Positions 12,401-44,974 of a stretch of DNA of 64,000 bases are shown piece by piece (positions within the stretch are counted from its first letter, which is position 1; every line of letters starts with the position of its first letter). Under the pieces are notes generated by a model that made no database searches, had not been told where the DNA came from, and saw only the letters and a list, made by a program, of their open reading frames with translations. The stretch comes from an uncultured Campylobacter sp. (GTDB lineage: Bacteria > Campylobacterota > Campylobacteria > Campylobacterales > Campylobacteraceae): assembly GCF_900539505.1 (NCBI RefSeq), contig NZ_UQCL01000002.1. One strand, 5' to 3'. The position numbers and the translations under genes were made by a program.

Positions 12401-13235
12401 TCTGGCGCCGGTTTTGGGGCTTTGCGGCAATCTTTTTACGCCGCTTGAGATGCCTAAATACGACCCGCAAAAGGCGCGGCTGGGCGCAAAAATTTTTACC
12501 GATGTAAGATTTAGCAGCAAAGGCCGCTCCTGCGAGAGCTGCCATAACTTCTATCTAAACGACTCAGGCGCTTCAGTGCGCGACGGACGCGTGCCTACGC
12601 TAATAAATTCTTATTATTTTGATCGCTACTTAGGCGATTATAATTTCGCGGGCTTTGAAGCGCGGATCGCGGCGTCGGTTTTTGGCAAGAACGAGCTTGA
12701 TGCGAGCGAAGATAGAATTTTAGAGCTTATCAGGAAGAATTTAACCTACAAGCAGGCTTTTGAAAGTGCTTACGGCGAGGCGAATACGGCGAACTTCATT
12801 GATGCGTTGAAGGAATTTTTAAAGTCCAAAACGGCGATAAATTCCAAATTTGACCGATTTTTGCGCGGCGAGGTTAAGCTAAATGATGCCGAATATAACG
12901 GATATGTGCTTTTTGTGCGGCTGTGCTCGGCATGCCATAACGGCGTTAGCCTAGGCACCGGCAGCTTTACTAAAATTCGCCCGAGCGCGGAAGAGGAGGA
13001 TGCGCCTAGGCATAGGCTCACTTCCGACGGATTTGAGTTGCGCCGCGTGCCTAGCTTGCGCAATATCACGCAAACCGCGCCTTACGTAAACGGGCAGACG
13101 GATTTGCGTCTTGCGGTGCGGCAGATCGCAAAAGATCTGCTAAAATACGATCTTAGCGATGGGGAACTTGATGCTTTGATGAGCTTTTTAGCTACACTTA
13201 AGGGCGAGATGACGGAGGCACAGGATGAAAGATAA
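12363..13235 (+). CDS. di-haem cytochrome c peroxidase family protein (lipoprotein-type signal)
   Basis: Two CxxCH haem-binding motifs (CESCH, CSACH). Signal MRSKRALSCFIFSLAPVLGLC. CCP/MauG-like spacing of the two motifs. Confidence 0.7.
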   Translation: MRSKRALSCFIFSLAPVLGLCGNLFTPLEMPKYDPQKARLGAKIFTDVRFSSKGRSCESCHNFYLNDSGASVRDGRVPTLINSYYFDRYLGDYNFAGFEARIAASVFGKNELDASEDRILELIRKNLTYKQAFESAYGEANTANFIDALKEFLKSKTAINSKFDRFLRGEVKLNDAEYNGYVLFVRLCSACHNGVSLGTGSFTKIRPSAEEEDAPRHRLTSDGFELRRVPSLRNITQTAPYVNGQTDLRLAVRQIAKDLLKYDLSDGELDALMSFLATLKGEMTEAQDER

Positions 13236-15645
13236 GATAATGTGGACTTTGATGGTGGGGATTATGATATTAGGCATAATCATCGCCGGGAATTATTTCT
13301 CGTCGCTAAGAGATGTAGCGAGATTTAGCACGATTTCGCGCGAGCTAGCTTTGATCGATAATGCCGACAACCGCTTAAATATATTATTTGATGCAAAGAT
13401 CGCAAGAAGGGACTTTTCGATTGCAAATGCCGATATGCGCGGCATCTATCAGGTGCTGCAAGCTTTACAAAAAGACAAAATCATCGATAAAATCGGACTT
13501 AGCAGCGATGTGCGCGCGATCGGAAGCGCTTTTAGCGATAAAATTTCACTTTTGGACGAGCTTGGGGCTTTAAATTCGCAGAATTTAATCCTTTTTCAAA
13601 GTCTGCAGCAAAAATTTTTATCCAGTGGCGCAAATGCGCAAAGAGCAAATCTCTACTCTCAAATTTTAGGGCTTAATTATAAAAATCGCTCCGAGATCTC
13701 TGCTTTAAAAAGTGCGCTAGAAAGCGCAGATGCGTCAAGCCCTGACGAAGCTGCGTTTATAGGAATCGCACGGCAAATTTTAAGGAATTTCGAGCGGCAA
13801 AATATCATCGTAAGTGATAATCTCTCGTTGCTAAATGAGCGCTTCGCAAGTCTGCGCGAGCGATTTTCTTACGCTAGTGAGGAATTTTACGGCTCGTTTA
13901 TGCAAATGACGATGCTTTACACGGCGGTGTTTTTGTCGTTTTTACTGCTTACTTACATCATAAATTCCAATGCTTTGCGTAGCAAACGCGCCCTCGCGCC
14001 CTATCACGCACTATGCGAGCAAGCAGGCGAAGCGATAGTTTTAGCAGATCAAAACTTTAAAATTTTATACGCTAATAAAAGCGTGCTTAGCTTAAGCGGC
14101 TACGAACAAAGCGAGCTGGAAGGAGGCGATCTTGGAGTTTTGATGCCCAAAGATAAAGGGATCGAACTTCCTGCGATGGTAAATAAAAGCGCCAAAGATA
14201 CGCGCCTTCTTCGTAAAAACGGCGAACTAGCCGATGTGAGCCTAAGGCTAGCAAATATCGCCACCGCATCCAAGCCGCCGCTATATGCACTTTACGCTCA
14301 TGACATCGGCGAGCGCGAGATTATGAAGCTAGCTCTTGCGAGCGCAAAGGAGAGCTTAAACAATCAAGTCTATATCGATCATCTTACGGGCCAGGGCAAC
14401 GAAGCAGCGCTATATGAGCTAATAAACGCCGAAAAAACGGGCGTAGCGATCTATATAACTATCGTAAATTTTGCAAATTTGCGACTTTTTTACAAGGCGG
14501 AGACGACGAATGAAATTCTGCGCTCCTTTGCGCGCACGCTTGCAATGTGTATCGAATCGCACGAGATCAAAGCTAGTATCTTTCGCATCCAATCGGATGA
14601 GTTTTGCCTATTTTACGAGGGACTAAATGTCGCGCGCGACGTGGAGATCATAAATAAATACTTCACCGACAAGGTTTTTAATCTCCATACCACCGAGGGC
14701 TTTGCCTCCGCGCCTTTAAATATCACGATGGGCGTAAGCGAGCGCGCCGACGTAGCGGGCGGCGCAAATAGGGTCTTTCAGGCGGTTATGGCGATGTATG
14801 AGGCGCAGAGCAAAAACGAGCACGTGGGCTTTTACTCGCGCCCAAATGCGATTGAGGAAAAATATCTTCAAAATCAGATTATGATCAACACCATTCAAAA
14901 CGCGATCAAGAAAAATCAAGTCTTTGTGCTTGTTCAGCCCATATTTGATATCACCCACCGCGATCCTAGTGGTAACACCTACGGCACCGAGGGCGGTGAT
15001 TATGTCCCGTTAGTATATGAAATTCTAATCCGCCTAATCGATCGTTCGGGCAAGACGCGCTGCCCGGGTGAGTTTATCGATATCGCAAAGCAAACCTCGC
15101 TCTACATCCCGCTAACTCAGGTAGTAATAAACGAAGCTTTTCGCTTGCTAGACCGCTTCGCAGGGACTTGCTTTAGCATAAATCTTTCATATTTTGACAT
15201 CGCAAACGAAGGTATCAAGGAGCTTTTAGAGCGCAAGCTCGCATCCAGTCCAAACGCTTCAAATCTATTCATTGAAATTTTAGAAAGCGAGGAATTTGAC
15301 GATTACGAGAGCCTACGCAGCTTCATCGCCGTAGCCAAAAACTACGGCTGCAAGGTCGCGATAGACGATTTTGGCAGCGGATACTCCAACTACTATAGAA
15401 TTTTAACGCTCGACGTGGATTACATAAAGATCGACGGAGCGCTCATCAAAAACATCGCAAACGACAAAAACTCGCGTGCTATCGTCGAAACCATCGCTAA
15501 CTTCGCGCGCAAGCAGGGCTACGAGCTCATCGCCGAATACGTAGAAAACCACGAAATTTCAATCATCTTAGAAGAGATGGGGATTAAATATATGCAAGGC
15601 TACTTCTACAGCAAGCCGATGGAGCCTTCGAGGATAAAATTCTAA
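13225..15645 (+). CDS. membrane sensor cyclic-di-GMP phosphodiesterase: periplasmic sensor region, PAS, degenerate GGDEF (SDEF) and EAL domains
   Basis: Two TM helices flank a ~190-aa N-terminal domain. PAS-like segment (ILYANKSVLSLSGYEQSEL). The GGDEF position reads IQSDEF. EAL domain with EILIR, DDFGSGYSNY and KIDGALI motifs. RBS GGAGG. Confidence 0.75.
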   Translation: MKDKIMWTLMVGIMILGIIIAGNYFSSLRDVARFSTISRELALIDNADNRLNILFDAKIARRDFSIANADMRGIYQVLQALQKDKIIDKIGLSSDVRAIGSAFSDKISLLDELGALNSQNLILFQSLQQKFLSSGANAQRANLYSQILGLNYKNRSEISALKSALESADASSPDEAAFIGIARQILRNFERQNIIVSDNLSLLNERFASLRERFSYASEEFYGSFMQMTMLYTAVFLSFLLLTYIINSNALRSKRALAPYHALCEQAGEAIVLADQNFKILYANKSVLSLSGYEQSELEGGDLGVLMPKDKGIELPAMVNKSAKDTRLLRKNGELADVSLRLANIATASKPPLYALYAHDIGEREIMKLALASAKESLNNQVYIDHLTGQGNEAALYELINAEKTGVAIYITIVNFANLRLFYKAETTNEILRSFARTLAMCIESHEIKASIFRIQSDEFCLFYEGLNVARDVEIINKYFTDKVFNLHTTEGFASAPLNITMGVSERADVAGGANRVFQAVMAMYEAQSKNEHVGFYSRPNAIEEKYLQNQIMINTIQNAIKKNQVFVLVQPIFDITHRDPSGNTYGTEGGDYVPLVYEILIRLIDRSGKTRCPGEFIDIAKQTSLYIPLTQVVINEAFRLLDRFAGTCFSINLSYFDIANEGIKELLERKLASSPNASNLFIEILESEEFDDYESLRSFIAVAKNYGCKVAIDDFGSGYSNYYRILTLDVDYIKIDGALIKNIANDKNSRAIVETIANFARKQGYELIAEYVENHEISIILEEMGIKYMQGYFYSKPMEPSRIKF

Positions 15646-25811: not shown

Positions 25812-26424
25812 TTTATGACGCAAAATTTAGCGCTGGCGGCACGCTTTTATCGCGGAATTCTGTAGCGTGGCAAAGATTTAATTTTGCTTGCTTTTAAAAT
25901 ACGACGCTTGCTAAAAATTTTAAAATTCCGTTTTGCTGGGCGGGAGTAGAAATTTAAGAATTTTAAATTCCACTATGTCTGCGCTAAAGCGCGAAATTTT
26001 AAAATTCCACTCCTTTTTTGTGCTGTTTTGTCAAATGCAATCTCAAAATTTAATCTCATAAAATTTTAAAATTTCATCGCGAGCTTTAAAGCGCTCATAA
26101 AATTTCTCACCCAATTCTGCAGCTTTAAAATTTTGTAAAATTCTGTGGCTTTAAAATTTTGCAAAATTTTAAAAATTTTAAATTCTATCGCTAGGACGCA
26201 GATGAAAACTCTAAAAAAACTCGCGCAAAATCGAAGCAAACAATGAAAAAGCGAATTTATTTGACGACTTTACTTACTATTTAATAATCATTAAAGATAT
26301 AAAAAGCTAAAATTGCTTTTTGCCTGCGGGCGAATTTAATGTCTGCTTGCCATTCGCGCGGGATTTTGAGGTTTCCCGTAGCCGTGGCAATAGTTTTGAA
26401 ATTATTTATGAGAAAGGAAAAAGG

Positions 26425-27234
26425 ATGAAGAAATTTCTCTTAAGTCTGCTTGTCGCAGCTTTAGCTAGTAGTGCGCTTTGCGCAAGGTCGCTCTCCGAGA
26501 TCAAAAGTAGCGGAGTGCTTAGAATAGGCGTTTATGACGCGCAACCGCCGTTTAGCAAGATAGAAGACGGCGTGCATCAGGGCTTTGAGGTCGATATGGC
26601 AAATGCTATCGCTAAAGATATGCTTCCATCGGGCGGAAAGGTGGAGTTTACCTCCGTGCTTGCAAATCAGCGTATAAAATTCCTACAAGAAGATAAGGTG
26701 GACGCAGTTATCGCAACTTTTACCGTAACTCCGGAGCGCGAGAAGCAGGTAGATTTTACGACCCCGTATTTTAGCGTCAATATAGGCATTTTAACCCGCG
26801 TCGAAGATAAGATTAAATCTTTAAACGAATTGCAAGATAAAACTATTTTAGTTCTTAGCGGCGGTACTGCAGAAACATACTTTGAAAAGCAAGGCTATAA
26901 TATCGCCAGATGCGACAACGCAAACGCTTGCTATAAGGCGCTAAAAGCTGGACAGGGCGACGGGTATGCCGATGATAACCTAGTCGTGCTGGCTTATCCG
27001 GTATTAGATAAAAAGGTAGAAGTAAATATCAAAAATTTAGGTACTTCGGATTTCTTAGCCATCGGCGTGAAAAAGGGCAATTCGGAGCTTTTGGATTTTC
27101 TAAACGGCGAGCTAATCAAGCTAAGCAAAGAGGGCTTTTTCAAAAATTCGTTCGATAATTTCATCGAGCCTTACTACAAAGGAACTGCAGAGAAAAAGTA
27201 TTTCTTGCTGGACGATCTTTATAGCTTGCTGTAA
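26425..27234 (+). CDS. periplasmic solute-binding protein, amino-acid ABC type (SBP family 3; PEB1/CjaA-like), copy 1 of 4
   Basis: Signal peptide. GVLRIGVYDAQPPFS… and …DAVIATFTVTPEREKQVDFTTPYF… are characteristic of SBP_bac_3. Conserved Cys pair ARCDNANAC. RBS AAGGAAAAAGG. Confidence 0.8.
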   Translation: MKKFLLSLLVAALASSALCARSLSEIKSSGVLRIGVYDAQPPFSKIEDGVHQGFEVDMANAIAKDMLPSGGKVEFTSVLANQRIKFLQEDKVDAVIATFTVTPEREKQVDFTTPYFSVNIGILTRVEDKIKSLNELQDKTILVLSGGTAETYFEKQGYNIARCDNANACYKALKAGQGDGYADDNLVVLAYPVLDKKVEVNIKNLGTSDFLAIGVKKGNSELLDFLNGELIKLSKEGFFKNSFDNFIEPYYKGTAEKKYFLLDDLYSLL

Positions 27235-27254
27235 TTTTTAAAAAGGGGGACGCT

Positions 27255-28058
27255 ATGAAAAAGATAATCCTAGCATTGATGCTGGCTGCGTGTTCGCTTT
27301 TTAGCAACACTTTAGCTCAAATCAAAGAAAAAGGGGTTATTCGAATCGGTATAGATGGCTCGTCTCCGCCGTTTAGCGTCGCTAAAGCCGGCGAATATAG
27401 CGGGTTTGAGATACTTTTAATCGAAGGGCTTGTTAAAGAAATTTTCGGCGATAAAGGCGGCAAGATAGAATATGTCGTAACTTTGGGCGATGATCGTATA
27501 AAAGCGGTGCAGGACAACAGAGTCGATTTAGATATCGCGCTTATCTCGGTTACGAAAGAGCGTGAGAAGCTGGTAGATTTCTCCGATCCATACTTTAGCG
27601 TAAATATCGGCGTGCTAACCCGTAGCGAAGATAATATCAGAAAAGTCTCCGATCTAAACGGAAAGACTATACTAGCGCAGCCCGGCACCACCGTGTTTGA
27701 TTACTTTACGAAACAGGGCTATAACGTAGCGCCGTGCGATAGTGCAAGCGAATGCTTTAACGCTCTAAAATCGGGCAAGGGCGACGGATACGCAGACGAT
27801 AATCTGCTTGTGTTCGCTTACGCCGTAGTAGACCGCAAAGTTGAAGTAAATATTAAGAATTTAGGCTCGACGGACTTCCTAGCCATCGCGGTGCAAAAAG
27901 GTAATACTGAACTACTTAACGCGGTAAATGCGGGACTGATCAATTTAAGCAAAAAGGGCTTTTTTACAAAAATTTTTGATGAGAGTATCGAGCCTTTTTA
28001 TAAAGGTACCGTCGATAAAAAGTATTTCTTGCTGGACGATCTTTACAGCCTGTTTTAA
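27255..28058 (+). CDS. periplasmic solute-binding protein (SBP family 3), copy 2 of 4
   Basis: Paralogue of copy 1 and highly similar to copy 3. Cys pair APCDSASEC. Motif GKGDGYADDN. Confidence 0.8.
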   Translation: MKKIILALMLAACSLFSNTLAQIKEKGVIRIGIDGSSPPFSVAKAGEYSGFEILLIEGLVKEIFGDKGGKIEYVVTLGDDRIKAVQDNRVDLDIALISVTKEREKLVDFSDPYFSVNIGVLTRSEDNIRKVSDLNGKTILAQPGTTVFDYFTKQGYNVAPCDSASECFNALKSGKGDGYADDNLLVFAYAVVDRKVEVNIKNLGSTDFLAIAVQKGNTELLNAVNAGLINLSKKGFFTKIFDESIEPFYKGTVDKKYFLLDDLYSLF

Positions 28059-28123
28059 TTTAAAATGGCGATGGATGGAATTCTATTCGCTGGCAAAATT
28101 TTAGTAAAATTTAAAGGAATTTT

Positions 28124-28927
28124 ATGAAAAAGATTATATTTACGTTGTTAATCGCTTCGTGTTCGTTATTTGCCAACTCTTTAGCGCAGATCAAAGAAAA
28201 AGGGCTCATTCGCATTGGGGTAGACGGCTCACTGCCGCCACTTAGCGTCTCTGAGGACGGAAGATATAGCGGTTTTGAAATTTCGCTTATCGAAGAGCTC
28301 GTGAAAGAAATTTTCGGCGATAAGGGCGGCAAAATCGAATATGTCGTAACTCTAGGCAATGATCGTATCACAGCCGTGCAAGATAACAAGGTCGATTTGG
28401 ATATCGCGGCGATTACGGTTACGAAAGAGCGCGAGAAACTAGTGGATTTTTCAAACCCTTACTTTAGCGTAAATATCGGCGTACTAACCCGTAGCGATGA
28501 CAATATCAAGACAATAAGCGACCTGCAGGATAAAGAAATTTTAGCAGAGCCCGGCACTACGGCTTTTGATTATTTTAATAAGGAAGGCTTTAAAGTTATC
28601 TCATGCGCCAGTTCGAGCGAATGCTTCCGCGCGCTAAAATCCGGTCGCGGCAGCGGCTATGCAGACGATAATATGGTAGTTTTGGGTTATTCGGTTGTAG
28701 ATCGCAAGGTAGAGGTAAATATCAAGAATTTAGGTACGTCGGACTTTTTAGCTATCGCGGTGCAAAAAGGCAACGATGACTTGCTAAACGCCTTAAACGA
28801 CGGGCTTGTCAAGCTCAGCAAAAATGGCTTTTTCAAGAAAATTTTTAACGACAGCATCGATCCTTTTTACAAGGGAAAGGCTGAGAAAAAATATTTCTTG
28901 TTAGATGATCTTTATAAAATGTTTTAA
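28124..28927 (+). CDS. periplasmic solute-binding protein (SBP family 3), copy 3 of 4
   Basis: Paralogue. Cys pair ISCASSSEC. Motif GRGSGYADDN. Confidence 0.8.
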   Translation: MKKIIFTLLIASCSLFANSLAQIKEKGLIRIGVDGSLPPLSVSEDGRYSGFEISLIEELVKEIFGDKGGKIEYVVTLGNDRITAVQDNKVDLDIAAITVTKEREKLVDFSNPYFSVNIGVLTRSDDNIKTISDLQDKEILAEPGTTAFDYFNKEGFKVISCASSSECFRALKSGRGSGYADDNMVVLGYSVVDRKVEVNIKNLGTSDFLAIAVQKGNDDLLNALNDGLVKLSKNGFFKKIFNDSIDPFYKGKAEKKYFLLDDLYKMF

Positions 28928-28942
28928 TTCAAAGGACAAAAT

Positions 28943-29746
28943 ATGAAAAAAATTCTACTAAGTATTTTGCTGGGTGCTGGCGCGCTTTGCGCTAATTCCC
29001 TAGCAGATATCAAGCAAGCAGGCGAAATTCGCATAGGCTTGCAAGATTCCCAGCCTCCGTTTAGCTTCGATGATAACGGCACGCTAAAGGGCTTTGAGGT
29101 TGATTTGGCAAATGAGTTAGTCAAAAATCTATTTGGCAATAAAAAGATCAAAATCGACTTTATCGCCGTAGCATCTAAAGATCGCGTTCCTTCACTGGAG
29201 CAAAACAAAGTAGATCTCATCATATCCAAGCTTACCGTCACAAAAGATCGCGTTCAGAAAGTCGATTTTTCTTACCCGTATTATTCAGTGCAAATTGGCG
29301 TGCTAAGCCGCAAGGACGATAATATTTCAAGAATCGATCAGATCGCGCATAAAAAAATTCTAAGCGTTAAGGGCACAACTGCCGAGGAGCACTTCAAAAA
29401 CGCGGGCTATGAGATTGCGACATGTACCGACGCGAATGAGTGCGTCGCTAGGCTAAAGGCTGGCGAGGGCATAGGCTTTGCCGACGATAATACGGTCGTA
29501 CTCGGATACGCTAGAAACGATGCCGCGCTTGATGCAAAAATCATCAACCTTGGCAAGGTAGATTATATCGCCGTCGCCCTATCTAAGGGCAATACCGAGC
29601 TGCTTGATGCGGTCAATAGCAGCCTGGTAAAAATGTATAAAGCGAAATTTTTCCATAAGGCTTTTGACGAGGATATCAAGCCATACTACGGCGGCAAGAT
29701 CGATAAAAAGCACTTCACGCTCGATGAGGTTTATAGCCTGTTTTAG
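28943..29746 (+). CDS. periplasmic solute-binding protein (SBP family 3), copy 4 of 4 (most divergent)
   Basis: Paralogue. Cys pair ATCTDANEC. Motif GEGIGFADDN. Confidence 0.8.
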   Translation: MKKILLSILLGAGALCANSLADIKQAGEIRIGLQDSQPPFSFDDNGTLKGFEVDLANELVKNLFGNKKIKIDFIAVASKDRVPSLEQNKVDLIISKLTVTKDRVQKVDFSYPYYSVQIGVLSRKDDNISRIDQIAHKKILSVKGTTAEEHFKNAGYEIATCTDANECVARLKAGEGIGFADDNTVVLGYARNDAALDAKIINLGKVDYIAVALSKGNTELLDAVNSSLVKMYKAKFFHKAFDEDIKPYYGGKIDKKHFTLDEVYSLF

Positions 29747-29797
29747 GCTTAGACGCATCTAAAATTTTAAGGCGCCCCTTGGCGTCTAAACATACCC

Positions 29798-29829
29798 GCA
29801 GCTGCGATATTTGATCGCAGCTTGCTTTT
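29798..29829 (+). terminator. putative Rho-independent terminator after the solute-binding-protein array
   Basis: Hairpin AGCTGCGAT-ATTTG-ATCGCAGCT followed by TGCTTTTG. Confidence 0.5.
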
Positions 29830-29969
29830 GCCGCCAAGGCTTCGGCGGCAATTTATAATTTAAATTCCGTATTTTTACGGATCCCGGTTGCGATATAAAA
29901 TTTTATGATGTTTTGATATGCGGTTGTGAAAGGGCGCGGCTTATAAAAGATAGTCGGTCGCAAGAAATT

Positions 29970-30926
29970 CTAATCCGAGTAGTAAAATTTTATATCCTTT
30001 TTCAGTTGCGTCGGCAGTATATTAAATTTAGCCCTAAAAATTTTAGAAAAATGCGATAAATTATTGTATCCGACCATTTTAGCGGCTTCGTTTACGCTGA
30101 TTTGATCTAGACTTAATAGCTCTTTTGCAATTCCAAGCCGCTCATTTGTCAGCATCGCATAAACGCTCGTGCCAAAATATGCTTTAAAATCCCTTTTTAG
30201 TGCAAATTCATTCGTGGCACAAAGACGAGCGAGCTCCTTAATGCTAGGTGGGTTTTGCATATTTTCAAGTAATATTTTCTTTGCTTTTTGGACTGTTTTT
30301 ATGTCATTTTCATCAAGACTAAGCGTATTTTCAGGCTCATTAAATTTATAAAAACTTTTATAAAGCATCTCTAAAATTTTACTTTCCATAAAAATTTCGC
30401 GCATTTTGCCGTCGTATATCGCGGCATTTTCGAGCTCTTTGAGGATGATATTTTGCACGGCGCTTGTTTTAAATTTCTTCATGCAAACGGCCTGATCTAA
30501 ATTCAAATTTTTTAAAATTCCCAGCTCATTTGCAAAAGCGGTGCTAAGCGCTATGCATGAGCTTTTATAGTGTTTATTTTCAAGCTCGTGAACGCCACGC
30601 AATTTGCTTTGCATAGTTCCGAGCCAAAACTCACCTTTATTCAAAACGAATTGATCTTTATCCGATCTGAAGCAGATAGGATTTTCGCCCGTATTGAAAA
30701 ATAAAAATGAATAGCGGCTACCTCGCTCGTGGCGATGCAAAAGAAAATCTCTGCAAATTATATCGCTGCTATAATATCCTATCCCTCCGCCCGTATAAAA
30801 AGAGCTAAAGTCGAATTTTATACTTTCGCTTTCAAGCTCGGTTTTGTTATACCCACATTGCTTGGACGGCTCAATGTCGTTAGATATTTTTTGTAAAAAA
30901 TCATCTAAACTTATCTCTTTAATCAT
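29970..30926 (-). CDS. AraC-family transcriptional regulator
   Basis: C-terminal double HTH (KELARLCATNEFALKRDFKAYFGTSVYAMLTNERLGIAKELL…GYNNLSHFSKIFRAKFNILP). Divergent from the TonB receptor gene. Confidence 0.8.
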   Translation of the reverse strand: MIKEISLDDFLQKISNDIEPSKQCGYNKTELESESIKFDFSSFYTGGGIGYYSSDIICRDFLLHRHERGSRYSFLFFNTGENPICFRSDKDQFVLNKGEFWLGTMQSKLRGVHELENKHYKSSCIALSTAFANELGILKNLNLDQAVCMKKFKTSAVQNIILKELENAAIYDGKMREIFMESKILEMLYKSFYKFNEPENTLSLDENDIKTVQKAKKILLENMQNPPSIKELARLCATNEFALKRDFKAYFGTSVYAMLTNERLGIAKELLSLDQISVNEAAKMVGYNNLSHFSKIFRAKFNILPTQLKKDIKFYYSD

Positions 30927-31035: not shown

Positions 31036-33006
31036 GTGCGCGCAATATATAAATTATCGCTGATTGCTGCTATAGCGACAGCCGGAATATCGAGCGAGAT
31101 AGAAAAACAAGGCAAAAGTGTAAATTTGGGTGAAATTACCGTAGTCAGTGCTACGGGCTATCGGCAAAATATCCAAGACGCACCCGCTTCTATCTCCGTT
31201 CTTACGCAAAAAGAGATACAAAAGCGCAACTATCAAGATATCTCCGCGATGGTAGAGGATTTGCCGAGTGCCTTTACCGCAACGCTAGGCGCTGCATCGA
31301 GAAAAGGCATAAGCCTAAGAGGCCTATCTCAAAAATATACAAAAATTTTAATCGACGGCAAACCTGCAACCAGCGATAGTGCTTATAAAGGATTAAGGAG
31401 TATCGGCAGCAGCCAGAATTTCTTGCCTCCCGCAAATGCGATAGAGCGCATAGAGGTCATCCGCGGGCCTATGAGCTCGCTTTACGGCAGCGACGCTATG
31501 GGCGGAGTAATAAATATCATCACCAAGGGCTTTTCAAATGAGCTTAGCGGTAATGTAAACGGATACTATACTTTCGCTAAAAAATCGCAAATAAAAGGTG
31601 ATTATCAAACAGGTTTTTATCTAAACGGAGCTATTGTCCCGGACGTGCTAGGTATCGCACTTTACGGCAGATTTTTTGAAAAGATAGAGGACAAAGAGCC
31701 TTATGCGAATAGAAATAATGAAGAGACGAATATGGGCGCAAAACTGATGTATAACGTAACGCAAAATGATGAGGTAGCGCTTGATTATCGTAAAGTAAAT
31801 AATAAATTTAGGCGTACATACGGGCGTACGCGAACAACCTCGGGAGGCAATAACGATATTGCGAAAGAGGATATGAAAGGCTACACCGCAAGCCTGTCTC
31901 ATCAGGGAAAATACGATAAGTTTATGATAGATAGCTATGCAAATTACGATAGCATGAAAGAAAGCGGCGCCCAGGATCTGCGTCTTAGAACGACTACGCT
32001 AAATTCTAAAGGCTCATATTTTTTCGATTCAAATGCTTTGAGTTTGGGCGTGCAATACCGAAGCGAGAGATTAAACGAAGCCGCCACTACCGCAGATGAG
32101 GCAAATGTCAAAAGATGGGATTATTCGATCTACGGCGAGGATGATTTTTATCTAACTGATGATTTAACGCTAACCGGCGGAATCAGATATAACCGCGATA
32201 AAGACTACGGCGGCCATATATCGCCGCGCGCTTATGCCGTTTATCGTTTAAACGAAAGTTTTTCTATTAAAGGTGGCGTTTCGACGGGATATTCAACTCC
32301 GGATATTAAGCAGCGTAGCGAGGGCCTTGCCCTGCCGTTTGCAGGAGGGCAAGGAGCGCAGATAGGCAGAAGCTCTTTAAAGCCTGAAAGCAGCATAAGC
32401 TACGAAGGCGGGTTTTCTTACGACGATAACGATAAATTTAACTTTAGCGCTACCGCGTTTTATACCAAAATCAAAGATGGAATTTCTACCAAATTAATTT
32501 GCCGTCCAAGACTGGGAAATCCTTGCGTGCATAACGGCAAAACTTACAGGCGCGGAATTTGGGATACTATAAATATCGCAGAAGCCGAGGTTAGGGGTCT
32601 AGAGCTAAGTAGCGATTATCAAATTTTAGATAATTTGAAGCTGCATGCAAACTACGCCTATACGAAATCCGAGCAAAAAACGGGTAGCGAGAAGGGCAAA
32701 ACCTTAAATAATTTTCCAATCCATTCGGTAAAGCTAGGATTTGATTACGACGTAAGCTCCAAGCTAAACTTATGGTCGCAAATAAATTATTATAGTAGGA
32801 CGCGCGATAGCCTAAGCTACGATGAGGATATCCGCTCATACACGCTTTTTGATCTGGGCGCGAGCTATAAACTCACAAAAGACGCAAGTTTAAATTTTAC
32901 GCTTTATAACATATTCAACGAATTCGTACTAACGCGCTCGGGAAATTATCAAATGATGGTCGTAGACGGGATGAAGGCTCAGGTTGGATTTAACGTGAAC
33001 TTTTAA
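31036..33006 (+). CDS. TonB-dependent outer-membrane receptor (siderophore/haem type), GTG start
   Basis: Signal peptide. Plug region (ITVVSATGYRQNIQDAPASISVLTQKEIQKRNYQDI). About 600-aa barrel ending …VGFNVNF. RBS AAAAGGGG. Confidence 0.85.
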   Translation: MRAIYKLSLIAAIATAGISSEIEKQGKSVNLGEITVVSATGYRQNIQDAPASISVLTQKEIQKRNYQDISAMVEDLPSAFTATLGAASRKGISLRGLSQKYTKILIDGKPATSDSAYKGLRSIGSSQNFLPPANAIERIEVIRGPMSSLYGSDAMGGVINIITKGFSNELSGNVNGYYTFAKKSQIKGDYQTGFYLNGAIVPDVLGIALYGRFFEKIEDKEPYANRNNEETNMGAKLMYNVTQNDEVALDYRKVNNKFRRTYGRTRTTSGGNNDIAKEDMKGYTASLSHQGKYDKFMIDSYANYDSMKESGAQDLRLRTTTLNSKGSYFFDSNALSLGVQYRSERLNEAATTADEANVKRWDYSIYGEDDFYLTDDLTLTGGIRYNRDKDYGGHISPRAYAVYRLNESFSIKGGVSTGYSTPDIKQRSEGLALPFAGGQGAQIGRSSLKPESSISYEGGFSYDDNDKFNFSATAFYTKIKDGISTKLICRPRLGNPCVHNGKTYRRGIWDTINIAEAEVRGLELSSDYQILDNLKLHANYAYTKSEQKTGSEKGKTLNNFPIHSVKLGFDYDVSSKLNLWSQINYYSRTRDSLSYDEDIRSYTLFDLGASYKLTKDASLNFTLYNIFNEFVLTRSGNYQMMVVDGMKAQVGFNVNF

Positions 33007-33055: not shown

Positions 33056-34201
33056 ATGGCGATTCTAAAAAGGAAAAAATTTTGGTTCAATGTCCATCTT
33101 ATTTTGACGCTTATATGCTGCGTGCCGATCTTAATCATAGCCCTTAGCGGCGCTATTATCTCGTATCATGATGAGATAATAGATGCGTTAAATCAAAGCA
33201 AATCTTTCGTGAGCCCGAGCGGAAAAGACGCTCTTAAGCCCGTCAAAATTTTAAATATTTTCAGAAAAGCCAAGCCCGGTTTTACGCTCAGTTATTATAG
33301 AATTCCTCAAAATAAAAATGGGGCGATTAGGCTTTCCGGTACAGATTCTAGCGGCGAGTTTAAATCATATTTTATAGATCCTTATAACGGCGAAATTACT
33401 TCGGAAAACATAGGCGATACGTTTATTGGCGTAGCGCTAAATCTACATACCAATCTAGGGTTTGGGCTAAGCAAAAACGAAACTCTGCGGCTAATAGGCA
33501 AAAATATCGTGGCGCTTAGCACGGTTATGTTTATTTTGGTCTTAATTTCAGGCGTGGTGATCTATTATCCTAGTTTTAGAGGAAAGATTTTACGCGCATT
33601 TAGGATAAATTTTAAAGCGAGAGGTTACACGTTTTTATATAGCTTGCACGGCGCGGTCGGAGTTTTGCTACTGCCCGTTTTGCTTACGATAAGCGCTAGC
33701 GGGCTTTATTGGTCGTATGATTGGATAGCCAAAATCACCAACAGAGCGCTAGGGGAAAAGGAAATTTTTAGAAAAACGAGCTTTACCGAAGTGCGAGGAT
33801 TTTCGCTCGAGGATGAAGATAAAATTTTAAATTTGCAGACGGCACTTGATATTTTTAAGCGTGAACGCGGTGAAAACTACGAATTCTTTAACATCATCGC
33901 CCAAAAAGATGGAGAAAATTTTATGATCTTTTATTTCGATAAAGGCGAAAAGAGCGAAGAGCATATGAACACGATGAGCGTAAACGTTAAAAAGGGCATC
34001 TTGCGGCATGCTTGCTATGATGATGCGAAAAGCACCATGCCGCGCCCTTTTGCTATACATAAAGCCGTTTTGAGCGTGCATTCGGGCTATATCTTCGGCG
34101 AGGCGGGTAAGTTCTTATTTTGCGTAGCGGCGATTTCTGTGTTATTTTTTATAGTTACGGGATTTTGGATGAGCATAAAAAGAATTTGCAAGAAAAGATA
34201 A
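33056..34201 (+). CDS. PepSY-associated TM-helix domain protein (PiuB-like)
   Basis: N-terminus KRKKFWFNVHLILTLICCVPILIIALSGAI, four TM helices and repeated PepSY_TM segments. Typical partner of TonB receptor genes. Confidence 0.7.
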   Translation: MAILKRKKFWFNVHLILTLICCVPILIIALSGAIISYHDEIIDALNQSKSFVSPSGKDALKPVKILNIFRKAKPGFTLSYYRIPQNKNGAIRLSGTDSSGEFKSYFIDPYNGEITSENIGDTFIGVALNLHTNLGFGLSKNETLRLIGKNIVALSTVMFILVLISGVVIYYPSFRGKILRAFRINFKARGYTFLYSLHGAVGVLLLPVLLTISASGLYWSYDWIAKITNRALGEKEIFRKTSFTEVRGFSLEDEDKILNLQTALDIFKRERGENYEFFNIIAQKDGENFMIFYFDKGEKSEEHMNTMSVNVKKGILRHACYDDAKSTMPRPFAIHKAVLSVHSGYIFGEAGKFLFCVAAISVLFFIVTGFWMSIKRICKKR

Positions 34202-35962: not shown

Positions 35963-37147
35963 CTAATGCGCATCCTCGATGTAGTGCCCTACAAATTTTG
36001 AGAGATTATTGAGTATCTCGCCGCCCTTGCGGAAGCCCAGCGCGCAGCCTTCATAGGCGAAAAATACCCCCGCTTGGTAGTTCTGGGCGCGCTCGTCTTT
36101 GTTGAGCTCATAAAATTCCTGATATAAAAATTTCTGATTTCCGTATTCGCCGCCGTTTTCCTCTATCTTTTTGCCGTCCGCGTCGAAGATCGCCACGTTC
36201 GCTCCCTCGCGCGCCAAAAACGGCTTTTTGATCATCTTTTTACCGATGATCGGCGAAAAGGAGCTTTGTATCAGCAGCGGGTGGTTCGGATAGAGATCCC
36301 ACAGGATTTTCATAATCCCCTTGCTTTGAAAAAGCAACGTGTATGCGGGATTTAGGATGATCGCCTTTTGATTTTGCACGATGTTTTTTAAGATGAGCGC
36401 AAGCTCGCCCTCCTCGATCGCGATCGCCTCCCAAGGGATGAGCTTGAACCAATACTCGTAGTTTTCGCCGTCAAAAAACACGCCCTCTTCGTCGTTAAAT
36501 TCCACCTCGTTCACGTAGGCAAAGCGCGTCTTAAAGCCCGCATCCTCCGCGGTCTGCTGCAAAAGCTTCGTCGTCTTTTCGTCCTCGACGTTGCCCGCGA
36601 CGCTGCTAAATAGAATTTTCCACCCCTCGTAAAATTTAGAAAAATCCTCCAGCTCGCCGTCAAGCACCACGAGCCGCTTGAAATTATCGCGCAGCGCGTC
36701 GTAGAGGTCGTTGAACTGGCTCGCCTCGTCCATGCCGTTTTTTTTGAGCATCGCCCACTGGATGATCGCGGTCTCAAACACCGCCGTAGGCGTGTCGGCG
36801 TTAAATTCTATCAGCTTGATTGGCTTGCCGTCCAGCCCGCCTGCGAAATCAAAGCGCCCGTATAGGTGCCAGTGCACCTCGTTTTCCCAGCTTTGCTTGA
36901 TTAGATCGACGAGGTTGAAGGGGATGCCTAGCTCGTGGAAGAGGTTATTGTCGATGACGTGCTGCGCAGCTGCGACAAACATCTCGTATAGCTCGTTTGC
37001 GGCCTTATAATACGCATCCGCCTCCGCAGCGCTCACGCGCACAATCTCGTCGCTGACGTAAGGGGTCTCGTCTGCGTCCGTGTGCCAGTAAAAGCCGAGC
37101 TTTTCGAGATACTCGTTGCTTAACGGCGTTATCTTTTTTAGTTGCAT
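35963..37147 (-). CDS. glutathionylspermidine synthase family protein (YgiC/YjfC-like ATP-grasp amidoligase)
   Basis: 394 aa. GSP-synthase pre-ATP-grasp pattern (…LYGRFDFAGGLDGKPIKLIEFNADTPT…). Lies next to a UPF0323 lipoprotein gene, as in Cj0371/Cj0372. Confidence 0.7.
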   Translation of the reverse strand: MQLKKITPLSNEYLEKLGFYWHTDADETPYVSDEIVRVSAAEADAYYKAANELYEMFVAAAQHVIDNNLFHELGIPFNLVDLIKQSWENEVHWHLYGRFDFAGGLDGKPIKLIEFNADTPTAVFETAIIQWAMLKKNGMDEASQFNDLYDALRDNFKRLVVLDGELEDFSKFYEGWKILFSSVAGNVEDEKTTKLLQQTAEDAGFKTRFAYVNEVEFNDEEGVFFDGENYEYWFKLIPWEAIAIEEGELALILKNIVQNQKAIILNPAYTLLFQSKGIMKILWDLYPNHPLLIQSSFSPIIGKKMIKKPFLAREGANVAIFDADGKKIEENGGEYGNQKFLYQEFYELNKDERAQNYQAGVFFAYEGCALGFRKGGEILNNLSKFVGHYIEDAH

Positions 37148-39011: not shown

Positions 39012-39635
39012 ATGCCCGAATCGCCTAAATATAAAAAATCCGAAATTCGCTGCAAGCTCATTTTAGACGCGGCGCTGGAGCTGTTTTTAGCCAAAGGCTA
39101 CGAAGCTACGAGCTTAAGCGATATCATCGAGCTTAGCGGCGGCTCGCTATCGTCGGTTTATAAGTATTTTGATAACAAAGAAAGTCTATTTTTGCGCATC
39201 ATCGAACTGCAAAGTAAAAAGCTCGACGAGCGAATGAACGAGCGCATGCGAATCAATAAAGACCTAAAATTACGTGAGTATCTGCAGGAGTTTGCAGGGA
39301 TTTATCTGGAGTTTCTTTTCGCTCCGGAGGCGATAAAATTCTACCGACTGATACTTTTCAGCGGCTTTAACGGTGCGCTTAGCGAGAGCCCAAAAATCTT
39401 TTTAAAAAGCGGCGTGCTAGGTTCGCCGAATGCGCTGGATGAGTATTTGGCGGCGCATGCGGACGAGTTTGCGCCCGGACGCACGGCAAAAAGCCTAGCG
39501 CTATATTTCTGCTTTTTGCTTAGAGAGCCGCATTTTAGCAGGCTGCTATTTTTCGACGAAAAGCTAAATTTCAAAGCGAGCGAGCTAATCGAGGATCGCA
39601 TCGATATGTTTTTGCTAGGCGTAAAAAAGCGCTAA
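39012..39635 (+). CDS. TetR/AcrR-family transcriptional regulator
   Basis: N-terminal HTH KLILDAALELFLAKGYEATSLSDIIELSGGSLSSVYKYFDNKESLF. RBS AAGGAGG. Confidence 0.8.
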   Translation: MPESPKYKKSEIRCKLILDAALELFLAKGYEATSLSDIIELSGGSLSSVYKYFDNKESLFLRIIELQSKKLDERMNERMRINKDLKLREYLQEFAGIYLEFLFAPEAIKFYRLILFSGFNGALSESPKIFLKSGVLGSPNALDEYLAAHADEFAPGRTAKSLALYFCFLLREPHFSRLLFFDEKLNFKASELIEDRIDMFLLGVKKR

Positions 39636-39970: not shown

Positions 39971-41311
39971 ATGGATTATGATATCATCGTAATAGGCTTT
40001 GGCAAAGCAGGCAAAACCCTTGCCGCAAAATCCGCCGCACTGGGCAAAAAGGTCGCTCTCATCGAGCGCTCGCCGCAGATGTACGGCGGCACCTGCATCA
40101 ACGTAGGCTGCATCCCGACCAAGCGACTGGTTACCGCGAGCAAGGAAGCTGGCTTCGTAAATTTCAGCGTGCTCGGAGAGTATTTCGTGCTGAGCATGCA
40201 GAAAAAGGACGAGCTCGTAGAGGCGCTGAGGGCGAAAAATTTAGCGATGCTAAAAGGTAACCCGAATATCGACATAATCGACGGCGAGGGCTCATTTACG
40301 AGCGCGAATTCCGTGCGCGTGCTAAGTCCCGATGGACAAACGCGTGAAATTTCAGCAGAAACGATCGTCGTAAATACGGGCTCGAGGGAGGTCGAACCGA
40401 GCTTTGAGGTAAACTCGCAGATCGCTTATAGTAGCGAAGAAATTTTAAATTTAAAGATCCTGCCGAAGCATCTAGTAATCATCGGCGGCGGATTTATCGG
40501 GCTTGAGTTTGCCTCGATGTTTGCGGGATTCGGTTCGAAAGTTAGCGTGCTTATGCGATCGAAATTTATGAAAAACGAGGATGAGGACGTGGCTGCTAGC
40601 GTCAAATCCGCTCTAGAGGCCCAAGGCGTGGAGATTATCGAGGGCTGCGAGTTTTTGAGCTTAAAGGGCGGGGAGCTAAAATTTAACCTCGCGGGCGAGA
40701 GCAAGGCGGTCGCGGCGGACGCGTTTTTATACGCCCTTGGGCGTCGCGCGAATACGAATGATCTAAATTTAGCCGCTGCGGGAGTGCAGACGGACGTATA
40801 CGGCAATATCATCACGAATGAGCATCTGCAAAGCTCCGCTGCGAGCATCTACGCGGCAGGCGACGTGCGCGGCGGCGAGATGTTTACCTACACTAGCCTG
40901 GATGATTTTAGGATCATTTTTAGCGCGCTTTTCGGAGACGGTGCGCGCACTACGAAAAATCGCACGCCGCATGCAAGCGTGCTGTTTACCCGCACGCCGC
41001 TAGCTCGCATCGGCCTTAGCGAGAGGCAGGCAAGAGAGAGTGGGCGCGAGATCAAGGTGCTAAAGCTTTCGATGGCGGCGGTGCCGGGCGCCAAGGTCGT
41101 AGCGCACGACGAGGGAATGATGAAAGCAGTCGTGGACGCAGCTAGCGGCGAAATTTTAGGCGCGGCGCTTCACTGCGTAAACGCGCACGAGATCGTTAAT
41201 GAGTTGGCGATCGCCATGGCGCTGGGCGCGAAGGCGGACTTTTTCAAAAACCAAATTTTTACGCATCCTAGCATTAGCGAGGCGCTAAACGATCTTTTCG
41301 GACAGTTTTGA
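39971..41311 (+). CDS. class I FAD-dependent pyridine nucleotide-disulfide oxidoreductase (glutathione reductase / dihydrolipoamide dehydrogenase-like)
   Basis: FAD-binding DIIVIGFGKAGKTLA. Redox-active disulfide GGTCINVGCIPTK. Second Rossmann fold LVIIGGGFIGLEFASMF. C-terminal dimerisation domain with THPSISE. Confidence 0.75.
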   Translation: MDYDIIVIGFGKAGKTLAAKSAALGKKVALIERSPQMYGGTCINVGCIPTKRLVTASKEAGFVNFSVLGEYFVLSMQKKDELVEALRAKNLAMLKGNPNIDIIDGEGSFTSANSVRVLSPDGQTREISAETIVVNTGSREVEPSFEVNSQIAYSSEEILNLKILPKHLVIIGGGFIGLEFASMFAGFGSKVSVLMRSKFMKNEDEDVAASVKSALEAQGVEIIEGCEFLSLKGGELKFNLAGESKAVAADAFLYALGRRANTNDLNLAAAGVQTDVYGNIITNEHLQSSAASIYAAGDVRGGEMFTYTSLDDFRIIFSALFGDGARTTKNRTPHASVLFTRTPLARIGLSERQARESGREIKVLKLSMAAVPGAKVVAHDEGMMKAVVDAASGEILGAALHCVNAHEIVNELAIAMALGAKADFFKNQIFTHPSISEALNDLFGQF

Positions 41312-41515: not shown

Positions 41516-42073
41516 TTAATTGATAAAATATTCTCGTTTAGGAATAGCAAGATCGCAATCTATTCGGCACTCGGTAAGAGTATGCGGATAAAATTTCTTC
41601 TCGCAGTTTATACAGGCGAAAACGATTTCGTCCGTCGCTTCATTCAACATAACTCTATAATCGCTAGGCGACCATTGCGGGCATTCGCACGCCAAGTCCA
41701 AATCCACGCTAACTACCAAGCTGTCAAATACAATCGAGTTTAATTCCTCGTAGACTAGTCTTAAGCTCTTTTGATCTTTCAGCGCTCTAATTTTATTTAT
41801 CAAGCGGTATTTGTCCGATTTGATAATCTTTGCGCCAAAGAGATCCTTCGCTTTTCCGTCGCCGTAAATCGATAGCTCGGTCGGATAATATTTAAAATTT
41901 AACTTTAACAGCTCGTCCAAGCCGCAGCCGTCGTATTCTTTCATAAGAAATAAAATTTTATTTTCCATAAACCAAGCCGCTATGCTATAGCATACTTGCT
42001 CGGGATTAAAAGGATGTAGATTTAAAATTCTATTTTCTAACGATAAACACAAATTTCTAATTTTGGGCTGCAT
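41516..42073 (-). CDS. hypothetical protein with a Cys-cluster C-terminus
   Basis: 185 aa, low GC. Motif CECPQW…CINCEKKF…TEC…C. No family recognised. Confidence 0.4.
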   Translation of the reverse strand: MQPKIRNLCLSLENRILNLHPFNPEQVCYSIAAWFMENKILFLMKEYDGCGLDELLKLNFKYYPTELSIYGDGKAKDLFGAKIIKSDKYRLINKIRALKDQKSLRLVYEELNSIVFDSLVVSVDLDLACECPQWSPSDYRVMLNEATDEIVFACINCEKKFYPHTLTECRIDCDLAIPKREYFIN

Positions 42074-42180
42074 TATTTCATCCTTTATTTCTACCTATAT
42101 CGACGATCTCGACAAAATTTTAGCCATCTTTTCTTTATACTTAATTTTATATTTATAATTTCACAAATTTAATACCTTTA

Positions 42181-42546
42181 TTAATCCCCAAAGATTAAAT
42201 AGGCTAAATTTCTACTCAAATTTCCATACGCAACTATCCAATATTCTCGTATGATGTTTTTTATTTGCAAGTTATCGTCCAGAAAGTCTGCAAATATTTT
42301 AACCCTATCTTTGTCTACTGTGCCTAGCTCTTCATCCTCTTTCTCAAACGAAGCGACAATTAAATGCGACAGAGCAATCTTGTCTTGGAAATTTAATGTC
42401 TTGTCTTCTAGTAAATTTAGCATTGACGTAATTTTACCGATATCTGCTAATTCTAGCTCCCAATCTTGCTCATTTCCCGTCGAATCTAATCCCAAAAGCT
42501 TATTTAATTTTATCGCGCTTTCTTTTCTTACGAAATAATCGGTCAT
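42181..42546 (-). CDS. hypothetical small acidic protein
   Basis: Start taken at MTDYF (RBS AAAGGATAATAAA). The listed ORF extends to 42630 and then overlaps its neighbour. Acidic, Trp-containing (EYWIVAYGN). Confidence 0.35.
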   Translation of the reverse strand: MTDYFVRKESAIKLNKLLGLDSTGNEQDWELELADIGKITSMLNLLEDKTLNFQDKIALSHLIVASFEKEDEELGTVDKDRVKIFADFLDDNLQIKNIIREYWIVAYGNLSRNLAYLIFGD

Positions 42547-42581
42547 TTTATTATCCTTTATATATGTTTTAACCGCGATAC

Positions 42582-43064
42582 TCAGCCGACCGCGCCATCT
42601 AGCAGCTTTTTGGAATTTTGCAAAACCCATACGAAATTTTCGAGCTCTACGCAGTCTTTTAATTCAAATCCAAAATTTAACAAACCTACCGATAGGGCGT
42701 CGCCATCTTTTATGACATGCGCTATTAGATTGCCTTTATGTTCTATACTCACTTTATTCTCATATCTTGTAAATTTAAAGATATTTTTCGAGCATCTTCC
42801 GTTTCTTTTTGAAAATTTCTCAAACTGCTCCGCAAAATTCGGTCTTTGATTCCCATCTTTTAGCCATAATCCCCCAGCATATAGCGCCCATATAAGCTCG
42901 TAAAAATTGATATTATGCCGAGTCTCGGCAGCAGCAACTAAAAGCTTATTTGTTTCATGGTTGATCTGTATTAAAGGCTCTCTGTCCATATGCCAAATCT
43001 CGGCTACTACTTTTTCTCTATCCGGCACGGAGGCAATTAAAAATTCAAATTCATTTTCTATCAT
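42582..43064 (-). CDS. hypothetical protein
   Basis: 160 aa, low GC, no motif recognised. A 37-codon ORF (about 43095–43208) lies immediately upstream. Confidence 0.4.
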   Translation of the reverse strand: MIENEFEFLIASVPDREKVVAEIWHMDREPLIQINHETNKLLVAAAETRHNINFYELIWALYAGGLWLKDGNQRPNFAEQFEKFSKRNGRCSKNIFKFTRYENKVSIEHKGNLIAHVIKDGDALSVGLLNFGFELKDCVELENFVWVLQNSKKLLDGAVG

Positions 43065-43242
43065 ATCAAAATCCTATTTTTTGTTTTTTACTGCCTAATT
43101 TAATTTGAATGCTCTATCGTTCGAGCCTAAATCATATTTACCCCATTCTTTTATGACATCTTGAGCTATACTTTTTACGCGGAATTCCTGCCCTACTAAA
43201 ATAAGCATCTATTTTCTCCATAATTCTATTAAATCATCATAT

Positions 43243-43476
43243 CTAAATCAAATTTCTATCCATATCAAATATTTTGGGATAGTTTTTATAGTTTATTTCG
43301 ATATAATCGCCCTTTTTAAATTTTTCAGCTTGCGTCGATAAAACCTCTAAAACTATAAATTCAAATCCAAAAAATAGCTCATCCCACCCCTCTTCTCCTT
43401 CTTCAAGATCTGGATCGCAGCATCCTTCAAAATCGTCATAAAATCTGACTTTGTATATTATTTTCATCAAACTCAA
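43243..43476 (-). CDS. hypothetical small acidic protein
   Basis: 77 aa, acidic (DPDLEEGEEGWDELFF). Confidence 0.3.
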   Translation of the reverse strand: MSLMKIIYKVRFYDDFEGCCDPDLEEGEEGWDELFFGFEFIVLEVLSTQAEKFKKGDYIEINYKNYPKIFDMDRNLI

Positions 43477-44945: not shown

Positions 44946-44974
44946 TTTTATATTCCTCTATAACAAATCAAATT

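Follow-up and report, generated by a model that had tools for sequence, protein, structure and literature searches.

Which purpose can four adjoining genes for amino-acid-type solute-binding proteins serve, when no matching permease or ATPase of an ATP-binding cassette (ABC) transporter is encoded beside them? This question is raised by positions 26425 to 29746 of a stretch of 64,000 nt (the window) of contig NZ_UQCL01000002.1 from an uncultured Campylobacter sp. (GCF_900539505.1). Judged by its sequences, this array is a lineage-specific expansion of an unlinked binding-protein subfamily, which is related to CjaA of C. jejuni and yet clearly distinct from it. The best explanation, which is regarded as reasonably probable, is that the four proteins are ligand-specific receptors that deliver amino acids to an unlinked polar-amino-acid ABC importer.

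Results

Four adjoining genes with their own translation signals and predicted export signals

The array consists of four adjoining open reading frames, which follow each other head to tail on the plus strand: copy 1 (W1, 26425-27234, 269 amino acids), copy 2 (W2, 27255-28058), copy 3 (W3, 28124-28927) and copy 4 (W4, 28943-29746), the latter three each encoding 267 amino acids. The gaps between them comprise 20, 65 and 15 bp. All four products were recognized as family 3 solute-binding proteins by the Pfam model SBP_bac_3 (PF00497), with scores of 97.5-104.8 bits and a gathering cut-off of 26.4 bits. This verified the four consecutive family 3 genes that had been described in an earlier annotation made from the DNA letters alone (the sequence-only reading). 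It had also assigned each gene its own ribosome-binding site and signal peptide, and sequences in line with this are present. A few bases upstream of each gene a site of the AAGGA or GGGGGA type is found, and each protein starts with a predicted signal peptide, in which MKK is followed by a hydrophobic stretch and a cleavage-type site of the small-x-small pattern. In an AlphaFold2 model of copy 2, the only copy that was modelled, this N-terminal stretch forms a helix of low confidence. Copies 2 and 3 contain a lipobox-like LAAC or IASC inside the signal peptide, and they may be either cleaved by signal peptidase I or lipidated.

The four proteins are identical to the RefSeq entries WP_177388803, WP_177388805, WP_177388807 and WP_177388809, the sequence of copy 1 being exactly that of WP_177388803.1. 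The entries are named "transporter substrate-binding domain-containing protein" and are found on many metagenome contigs. Copies 2 and 3 had been thought to be nearly identical, but this turned out to be wrong. They share 75% of their residues and likewise 75% of their DNA, the longest DNA word common to both is 23 nt, and at synonymous sites the divergence (dS) is about 1.5, showing that the duplications are old. Copy 1 shares 56% of its residues with either of these two. Copy 4, which had been described as divergent, is the most divergent protein of the array, with an identity of 47-48% to the other three.

Within the array, copy 4 is the only one to carry N-glycosylation sequons of the Campylobacter type, DDNGT at residues 43-47 and DDNIS at residues 125-129. 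The second one aligns with DSNIT of CjaA, and CjaA has been reported to be N-glycosylated (PMC4178425).

A Campylobacter subfamily beside the L-cysteine receptors

To none of the NCBIfam models that were matched (the equivalogs for PEB1a, FliY/TcyJ, HisJ, ArgT, ArtI/J and GlnH) could a copy be assigned at the respective cut-off. The four copies scored 62-98 bits with NF008885 (cut-off 373) and 85-96 bits with NF008426 (cut-off 312), and the best-scoring model was the subfamily model TIGR01096, with 118-128 bits and a cut-off of 256. The model for orphan binding-like GrrP proteins, TIGR04262, yielded 29-46 bits and thus also did not reach its cut-off of 190.

The closest solved structures in a phmmer search were those of Ngo2014 of Neisseria gonorrhoeae (2YJP, E value 1e-46) and CjaA (1XT8, E value 7e-44), with identities of 35-39% to the array proteins. 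The same two structures ranked first by fold. The model of copy 2, which has a mean predicted local distance difference test score (pLDDT) of 91.8, could be superimposed on them with template modelling (TM) scores of 0.92-0.93 and root mean square deviations (rmsd) of 1.5-1.7 Å. In a Foldseek search the top 50 matches were all amino-acid-binding proteins, with a best TM score of 0.93. The predicted fold of copy 2 is the two-lobed type II periplasmic binding fold. Both Ngo2014 and CjaA are L-cysteine receptors (PMC9824665, PMC7170509).

Two features distinguish the array proteins from this receptor type. One is a pair of cysteines, for which the sequence-only reading had given a spacing of six residues. 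The correct spacing is five, and C-x5-C is found in all four copies (CDNANAC, CDSASEC, CASSSEC, CTDANEC). The other is a strongly conserved C-terminal tail with the consensus PFYKGTAEKKYFLLDDLYxxF. Both occur together, since every C-x5-C homologue from the protein search has the tail. In contrast, proteins of the CjaA/Ngo2014 type lack the KKYFLLDDLY tail, and at the two cysteine positions they have an aromatic residue (Tyr in CjaA, Phe in Ngo2014) and a Thr. All named members of the C-x5-C subfamily are from Campylobacter (uncultured species, C. corcagiensis, C. blaseri and C. geochelonis), and in other species of the genus they occur as unlinked tandem pairs or triplets. The array proteins, which are of class F (family 3), thus appear to belong to a subfamily that is confined to Campylobacter among the matches examined. 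Its sister group, judged by sequence comparison, comprises the L-cysteine receptors CjaA and Ngo2014. A literature search for papers on the C-x5-C subfamily yielded none.

In the model of copy 2 the two cysteines lie in the small lobe, C161 at the end of a strand and C167 in the first turns of the following helix, and both were modelled with high confidence. They probably form a disulfide, which is plausible because they are the sole cysteines of the mature proteins. The tail has a pLDDT of about 85-89. Across the subfamily the tail is more conserved than the binding pocket, the signature of which varies widely, and the cysteine in the signal peptide is not conserved.

A further motif, G.GDGYADDN, had been attributed to all four copies. 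It is exact in copies 1 and 2, while copy 3 has GRGSGYADDN and copy 4 has GEGIGFADDN; the general form in the array is G-x-G-x-G-[YF]-A-D-D-N. The motif is best read as the subfamily version of the usual family 3 segment with the Asp that binds the alpha-amino group of the ligand.

Binding pockets differ between the copies and are fixed within each copy

To compare the pockets, the four copies were aligned with CjaA, Ngo2014 and the glutamine-binding protein GlnBP of E. coli, the sequence of which was verified against 1GGG. The ligand-contact residues were those of the GlnBP structure. The signature comprised the positions 10, 11, 13, 50, 67, 68, 70, 75, 115, 117-120, 156 and 157 in GlnBP numbering. 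As the mapping is alignment-based, a shift by one residue may affect single positions, most of all position 50. The signature reads Y-D-Q-A-A-T-T-R-L-G-G-T-A-D-D in copy 1, D-G-S-G-A-L-S-R-Q-G-T-T-V-D-D in copy 2, D-G-L-G-A-A-T-R-E-G-T-T-A-D-D in copy 3 and Q-D-Q-S-S-K-T-R-V-G-T-T-A-D-D in copy 4, compared with F-G-K-A-A-N-T-R-N-G-T-T-A-H-D in CjaA.

The residues that hold the main chain of the ligand are kept in all four copies, i.e., the equivalents of Thr70 of GlnBP (Ser in copy 2), Arg75, the G-T-T loop and Asp157. Arg75 and Thr/Ser70 presumably bind the alpha-carboxylate of the ligand and Asp157 its alpha-amino group. The ligands are therefore expected to be free alpha-amino acids or close derivatives of these. 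The residues around this frame are different. At the positions equivalent to 10, 11, 13, 50, 68 and 115 each copy has its own set of residues, and even between copies 2 and 3 five pocket positions are different (S/L37, L/A96, S/T98, Q/E142 and V/A147). The combination F-G-K-A-N-N-H at positions 10, 11, 13, 50, 68, 115 and 156 is identical in CjaA, Ngo2014 and two homologues from Pasteurellaceae, and by alignment it is present in none of the four copies. The predicted pockets thus argue against plain cysteine binding of the CjaA type.

The differences between the copies are stable. Those five that distinguish copy 2 from copy 3 are fixed in every one of the 21 orthologous genomes, and in each copy, including copies 1 and 4, the checked pocket positions are invariant across 17-21 orthologues. 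The exception is a change from G to S at position 144, which was found in one genome each for copies 2 and 3. The copy-specific residues are also present in the orthologues of a sister lineage. Identical pockets, which the sequence-only reading had associated with a simple dosage duplication, were therefore not found: the pockets differ between the copies and stay fixed in the orthologues, and by this criterion a simple dosage duplication is excluded.

All four genes are old and maintained

About 20 species-level Campylobacter genomes with the same array were used as the orthologue set. The ratio of nonsynonymous to synonymous substitutions (dN/dS) was 0.032 for copy 1 (22 orthologues) and 0.070, 0.046 and 0.026 for copies 2, 3 and 4, respectively. 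These low values show that each copy is under purifying selection and that all four are maintained, functional genes. Copy 2 is the most variable and fastest-evolving copy among the orthologues, with a dN of 0.014 compared with 0.004-0.005 for copies 1 and 4.

In a sister lineage (loci L081 and L082) the same context contains three copies. When a neighbour-joining tree was calculated, the first and the third of these genes paired with copies 1 and 4, respectively, the middle one paired with copy 3, and copy 2, which has no orthologue in the three-copy lineage, branched just outside the latter pair. From these pairings it follows that at least three paralogues are older than the split of the two lineages.

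In metagenome assemblies several chimeric proteins were observed (P0002-P0008), which combine the N-terminus of copy 2 with the C-terminus of copy 3, the reverse, or copy 2 with the tail of copy 4. One locus (L086, chimera at 759-1562) contains a three-copy array of copy 1, a copy 2/3 fusion and copy 4, and a chimera is also present in L087 (2764-3567). The chimeras could reflect either real changes in copy number by unequal recombination, or assembly collapse at shared words of 23-29 nt.

No polar-amino-acid translocator is linked to the array

A partner transporter was searched for by scanning all six frames for Walker A and LSGGQ motifs and by annotating, with Pfam or NCBIfam, open reading frames of at least 150 amino acids that were not obviously spurious, a few of them being left out (e.g., 53283-53744 and two at 61275-63993). 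No permease or ATPase of a polar-amino-acid ABC transporter was found in the 64-kb window, which covers 26 kb on the upstream side of the array and 34 kb on its downstream side. The statement of the sequence-only reading that no ABC component lies nearby thus holds for this transporter type, while ABC genes of other types are present. These are a fused SbmA/BacA-type protein (16-1782), a ZnuBC-like ABC-3 pair (9829-11455) and a NitT/TauT-type trio with its own binding protein (55649-58088). The ones closest to the array are the ZnuBC type at a distance of 15 kb and the NitT/TauT type at 26 kb.

The unlinked state was found in every Campylobacter locus examined. At four other loci of the genus no ABC signature motif was detected within 10 kb of the homologues. 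In contrast, homologues from Actinobacillus and Bacillus directly adjoin genes for an ABC ATPase or permease. A precedent exists in C. jejuni, in which cjaA is unlinked to any translocator, and the Paq translocator is encoded without a binding-protein gene (PMC8015009, PMC4178425). As a possible partner of CjaA, this Paq system (Cj0467-0469) has been discussed (PMC8015009, PMC3417520, PMC4178425). That several binding proteins can share one translocator is described in a review by Thomas (2010), according to its citation in PMC7170509.

Promoter region and terminator

Upstream of copy 1 lies an AT-rich intergenic region of 613 bp on the plus strand (25812-26424), which has a GC content of 0.33 and is the probable promoter and leader region of the array. 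The four genes probably form one operon that is driven from this region. A promoter-like site is present at 26261-26288. When the upstream regions of 24 loci were aligned, including that of the sister lineage L081, a block of about 45 bp (roughly 26266-26310) was found to be conserved in the latter. It contains the near-palindrome TTTAATAATCATTAAA beside the -10-like sequence GATATAAAA. A search of the array leader against Rfam yielded nothing at the gathering thresholds and one chance-level match of 23 bits at relaxed thresholds.

A candidate Fur box at 26282-26296 was also considered. The sequence TAATAATCATTAAAG matches the consensus used for Fur boxes of the epsilonproteobacteria at 11 of 14 positions, and it is partly conserved in the sister lineage. 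The window contains four matches of that quality, compared with 8.4 expected from shuffled sequences. Because such matches are not enriched, the Fur box was rejected and its likeness was not counted as evidence.

Downstream of copy 4 three hairpins are present on the plus strand (29770-29787, 29798-29825 and 29828-29851). Terminator-like sites were predicted at 29800-29822 and 29828-29851, and the last hairpin is followed by the T-rich tail TTTATAATTT. The 131 nt downstream of copy 4 have a folding energy of -46.6 kcal/mol and a z-score of -4.3. The hairpin at the end of the array that had been noticed earlier was thus verified, and the hairpins are likely to be the terminator of the array. 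They may also end the convergent araC-type gene on the other side. No terminator-like sites were found in the gaps between the array genes, and two weak hairpin matches lie inside copy 2.

The neighbouring AraC/TonB/PepSY module is separable from the array

The array is adjoined by a gene for an AraC-type regulator on the minus strand (29970-30926), which is convergent to it, followed by genes for a TonB-dependent receptor that is closest to models of the catecholate type (31036-33006) and for a PepSY_TM protein (33056-34201). The adjacency to such a locus of the iron-uptake type had been pointed out in the sequence-only reading, and it is real. In related genomes the gene order is conserved on both sides: DUF475/TerC, an NhaC-family transporter and a small CopD-like membrane protein precede the four binding proteins, and AraC, TonB receptor, PepSY_TM, a 2-hydroxyacid dehydrogenase and a GspS-like protein follow them. 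In one related locus (L005) the array and the flanks are kept, and unrelated small open reading frames replace the AraC/TonB/PepSY genes (12493-14033). Subfamily members also occur as tandem pairs in C. blaseri and C. corcagiensis, there in quite different neighbourhoods, which contain neither a TonB receptor nor ABC components within 10 kb. Therefore, the module is separable from the array, and it behaves as variable cargo at this site. On the basis of these contexts a functional coupling of the array to the module was rejected as unsupported.

The GC content at third codon positions (GC3) is 0.47-0.51 in the array and 0.37-0.44 in the module, the lowest of the region, versus 0.64-0.74 in the flanks. 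The low values of both array and module suggest acquisition from relatives with a lower GC content.

Several other features of the window were observed. Genes related to thiols or oxidants are located near the array, i.e., a gene for a glutathionylspermidine-synthase-like protein (35963-37147) and a TetR regulator gene beside one for an RclA/MerA-like flavoprotein (39012-39635 and 39971-41311). The flavoprotein is of the hypothiocyanous acid or reactive chlorine reductase type, with scores under the equivalog cut-offs. The stretch 42000-46700 has a GC content of 0.34-0.35, contains only open reading frames without a Pfam match and adjoins a tRNA gene on the minus strand (46576-46648), which is overlapped by a match to the Rfam antisense RNA HPnc0260 on the plus strand (46464-46611). 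It may be an integrated element. At 55649-60345 the NitT/TauT-type trio, made up of a weakly SsuA-like binding protein, a permease and an ATPase, is followed by a gene for a protein of 754 amino acids with a C-terminal NnrS domain. A further TonB-dependent receptor of 691 amino acids is encoded at 3398-5473, 23 kb upstream of the array.

Discussion

Receptors for an unlinked importer and the alternatives

According to the preferred explanation, the four genes would give rise to four periplasmic receptors for free alpha-amino acids or close derivatives, which are probably soluble and not lipid-anchored. Each paralogue would close on its own ligand, and the loaded receptor would then dock to and hand its ligand over to a polar-amino-acid ABC permease/ATPase that is encoded elsewhere in the genome. 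By analogy with HisJ and LAO on HisQMP, several receptors could share this one translocator. Of the roles that the sequence-only reading had offered, i.e., sensor, antigen or feeder of a distant transporter, the feeder fits the evidence best, and the other two gained no support. Several points weigh against the delivery of amino acids to an importer. The partner transporter was not found in a search that was limited to the 64-kb window; the pocket positions were derived from an alignment to GlnBP and not from ligand-bound coordinates; and the conserved C-terminal tail has no known role in docking to ABC transporters and could point to a different partner. In addition, the precedent from C. jejuni is incomplete, because no proof exists that CjaA takes part in uptake, and growth on cysteine is normal in cjaA and paqP mutants (PMC8015009, PMC4178425).

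The tail is also the starting point of a different proposal, namely that the proteins are periplasmic ligand sensors that, once loaded, use it to bind to a signalling protein such as a chemoreceptor or a sensor kinase instead of an ABC importer. In its favour are the conservation of KKYFLLDDLY..F, which exceeds that of the pocket and is missing from the ABC-linked CjaA/Ngo2014 type, the lack of a linked translocator in all Campylobacter loci examined, and a histidine kinase and response regulator pair about 1 kb downstream of the C. blaseri locus, on the other strand. However, a chemoreceptor or kinase gene beside the arrays is not conserved and the contexts vary by lineage, four differing pockets suit nutrient scavenging at least equally well, and Ngo2014, which outside Campylobacter is the closest relative to have been characterised, has been described as an ABC transporter's binding protein for L-cysteine (PMC7170509). 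A sensor role is regarded as unlikely. Slightly less likely again is the more general idea that the C-x5-C/tail subfamily comprises Campylobacter-specific sensors or carriers that dock to a non-ABC partner, which might be a chemoreceptor, a sensor kinase or a secondary transporter. If it were true, the radiation of the pockets would represent a detector panel for host-derived amino acids or thiols. The expansion could also have been driven by interaction with the host, in which case the proteins would mainly act as antigens or adhesins that are exposed on the surface or anchored in the membrane. In C. jejuni both CjaA and PEB1a are immunodominant, the latter being an adhesin as well (PMC4178425), and the lipobox-like motifs of copies 2 and 3 and the two sequons of copy 4, one of them at the CjaA position, would be in line with such a role. 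Yet the signal-peptide cysteine is not conserved in the subfamily, the signal peptide joins the domain without a linker, unlike in CjaA, the dN/dS values of 0.03-0.07 show no diversifying selection, and the residues for the main chain of the ligand are fully retained. This role, which would moreover be compatible with transport, is regarded as improbable.

About equally improbable is a joint function of the array and the AraC/TonB-dependent receptor/PepSY_TM genes, in which the binding proteins would carry an amino-acid-containing siderophore or a breakdown product thereof. Array and module adjoin each other not only in the window but also in the sister lineage and in about 15 related genomes whose contigs extend far enough; they share a GC3 of 0.37-0.51 that sets them apart from the flanks; and the promoter region of the array contains the Fur-box-like palindrome. 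On the other side, L005 has the four genes without the module, the tandem homologues of C. blaseri and C. corcagiensis have no TonB receptor nearby, the hairpins and the convergent araC-type gene lie between separate transcription units, and matches to the Fur box occur at chance level. In catecholate-amino-acid conjugates the alpha-amino and alpha-carboxylate groups are blocked, whereas the pockets retain the Asp and the Arg for exactly these groups in their free form. The least probable alternative is the dosage amplification of one cysteine-binding protein, with all four copies binding L-cysteine like CjaA. In its favour, both closest solved structures are L-cysteine receptors, and some database homologues are named periplasmic cysteine-binding protein. 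But no copy has the CjaA/Ngo2014 signature, the pockets are mutually different and these differences are fixed across orthologues, and the copies are 47-75% identical to each other with saturated synonymous sites.

Significance

Campylobacter species other than C. jejuni do not ferment sugars and live on amino acids. The array is an enlarged version of an arrangement that is already known in the genus, and no concept is changed by it: unlinked binding proteins and shared translocators are well established, and the four proteins are already present in RefSeq under a generic name. Its value is moderate, for the nutrient physiology of Campylobacter and for mending annotations. The name "cysteine-binding protein" is probably misleading for members of this subfamily, because their pockets are no longer of the cysteine type. 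The likely disulfide, the conserved tail and the variable pocket on a conserved main-chain-binding frame can serve as markers of the subfamily, and they offer a handle on its ligand range and on the way in which unlinked receptors meet a translocator.

Comparison with known systems

Among the systems most similar to the array is CjaA (Cj0982c, 1XT8) of C. jejuni, from the same genus. It shares the family 3 fold (TM score 0.92, rmsd 1.7 Å), and its gene is likewise unlinked to an ABC permease/ATPase, its translocator being unproven (PMC4178425, PMC8015009). However, CjaA is only 35-37% identical to the array copies, it is a linker-containing lipoprotein, none of them shares its pocket signature, it has Tyr and Thr in place of the C-x5-C pair and no KKYFLLDDLY tail, and cjaA is a single gene. 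Ngo2014 of N. gonorrhoeae (2YJP) is the best match by both sequence (E value 1e-46) and structure (TM score 0.93, rmsd 1.5 Å, 38% identity). It differs by its cysteine pocket of the CjaA type and by the absence of the cysteine pair and the tail, and a close homologue from Actinobacillus is encoded directly beside an ABC ATPase gene.

PEB1a of C. jejuni (Cj0921c, 2V25), an aspartate/glutamate-binding adhesin, is encoded in its own ABC operon. It is a weak match to the array, with an E value of 5e-15 over half of the protein, and the scores of 62-98 bits with NF008885 remain far from the required 373. What it shares with the array is the genus and the membership in family 3, and a dual role has been proposed for it (PMC4178425).

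The proposed mechanism has its model in HisJ and LAO, two paralogous family 3 receptors with different pockets that use the one translocator HisQMP. With the array proteins, the NCBIfam models for HisJ, ArgT and ArtJ scored far under their cut-offs. In enteric bacteria at least one of the two receptor genes lies inside the transporter operon, whereas all four genes of the array are unlinked to a translocator.

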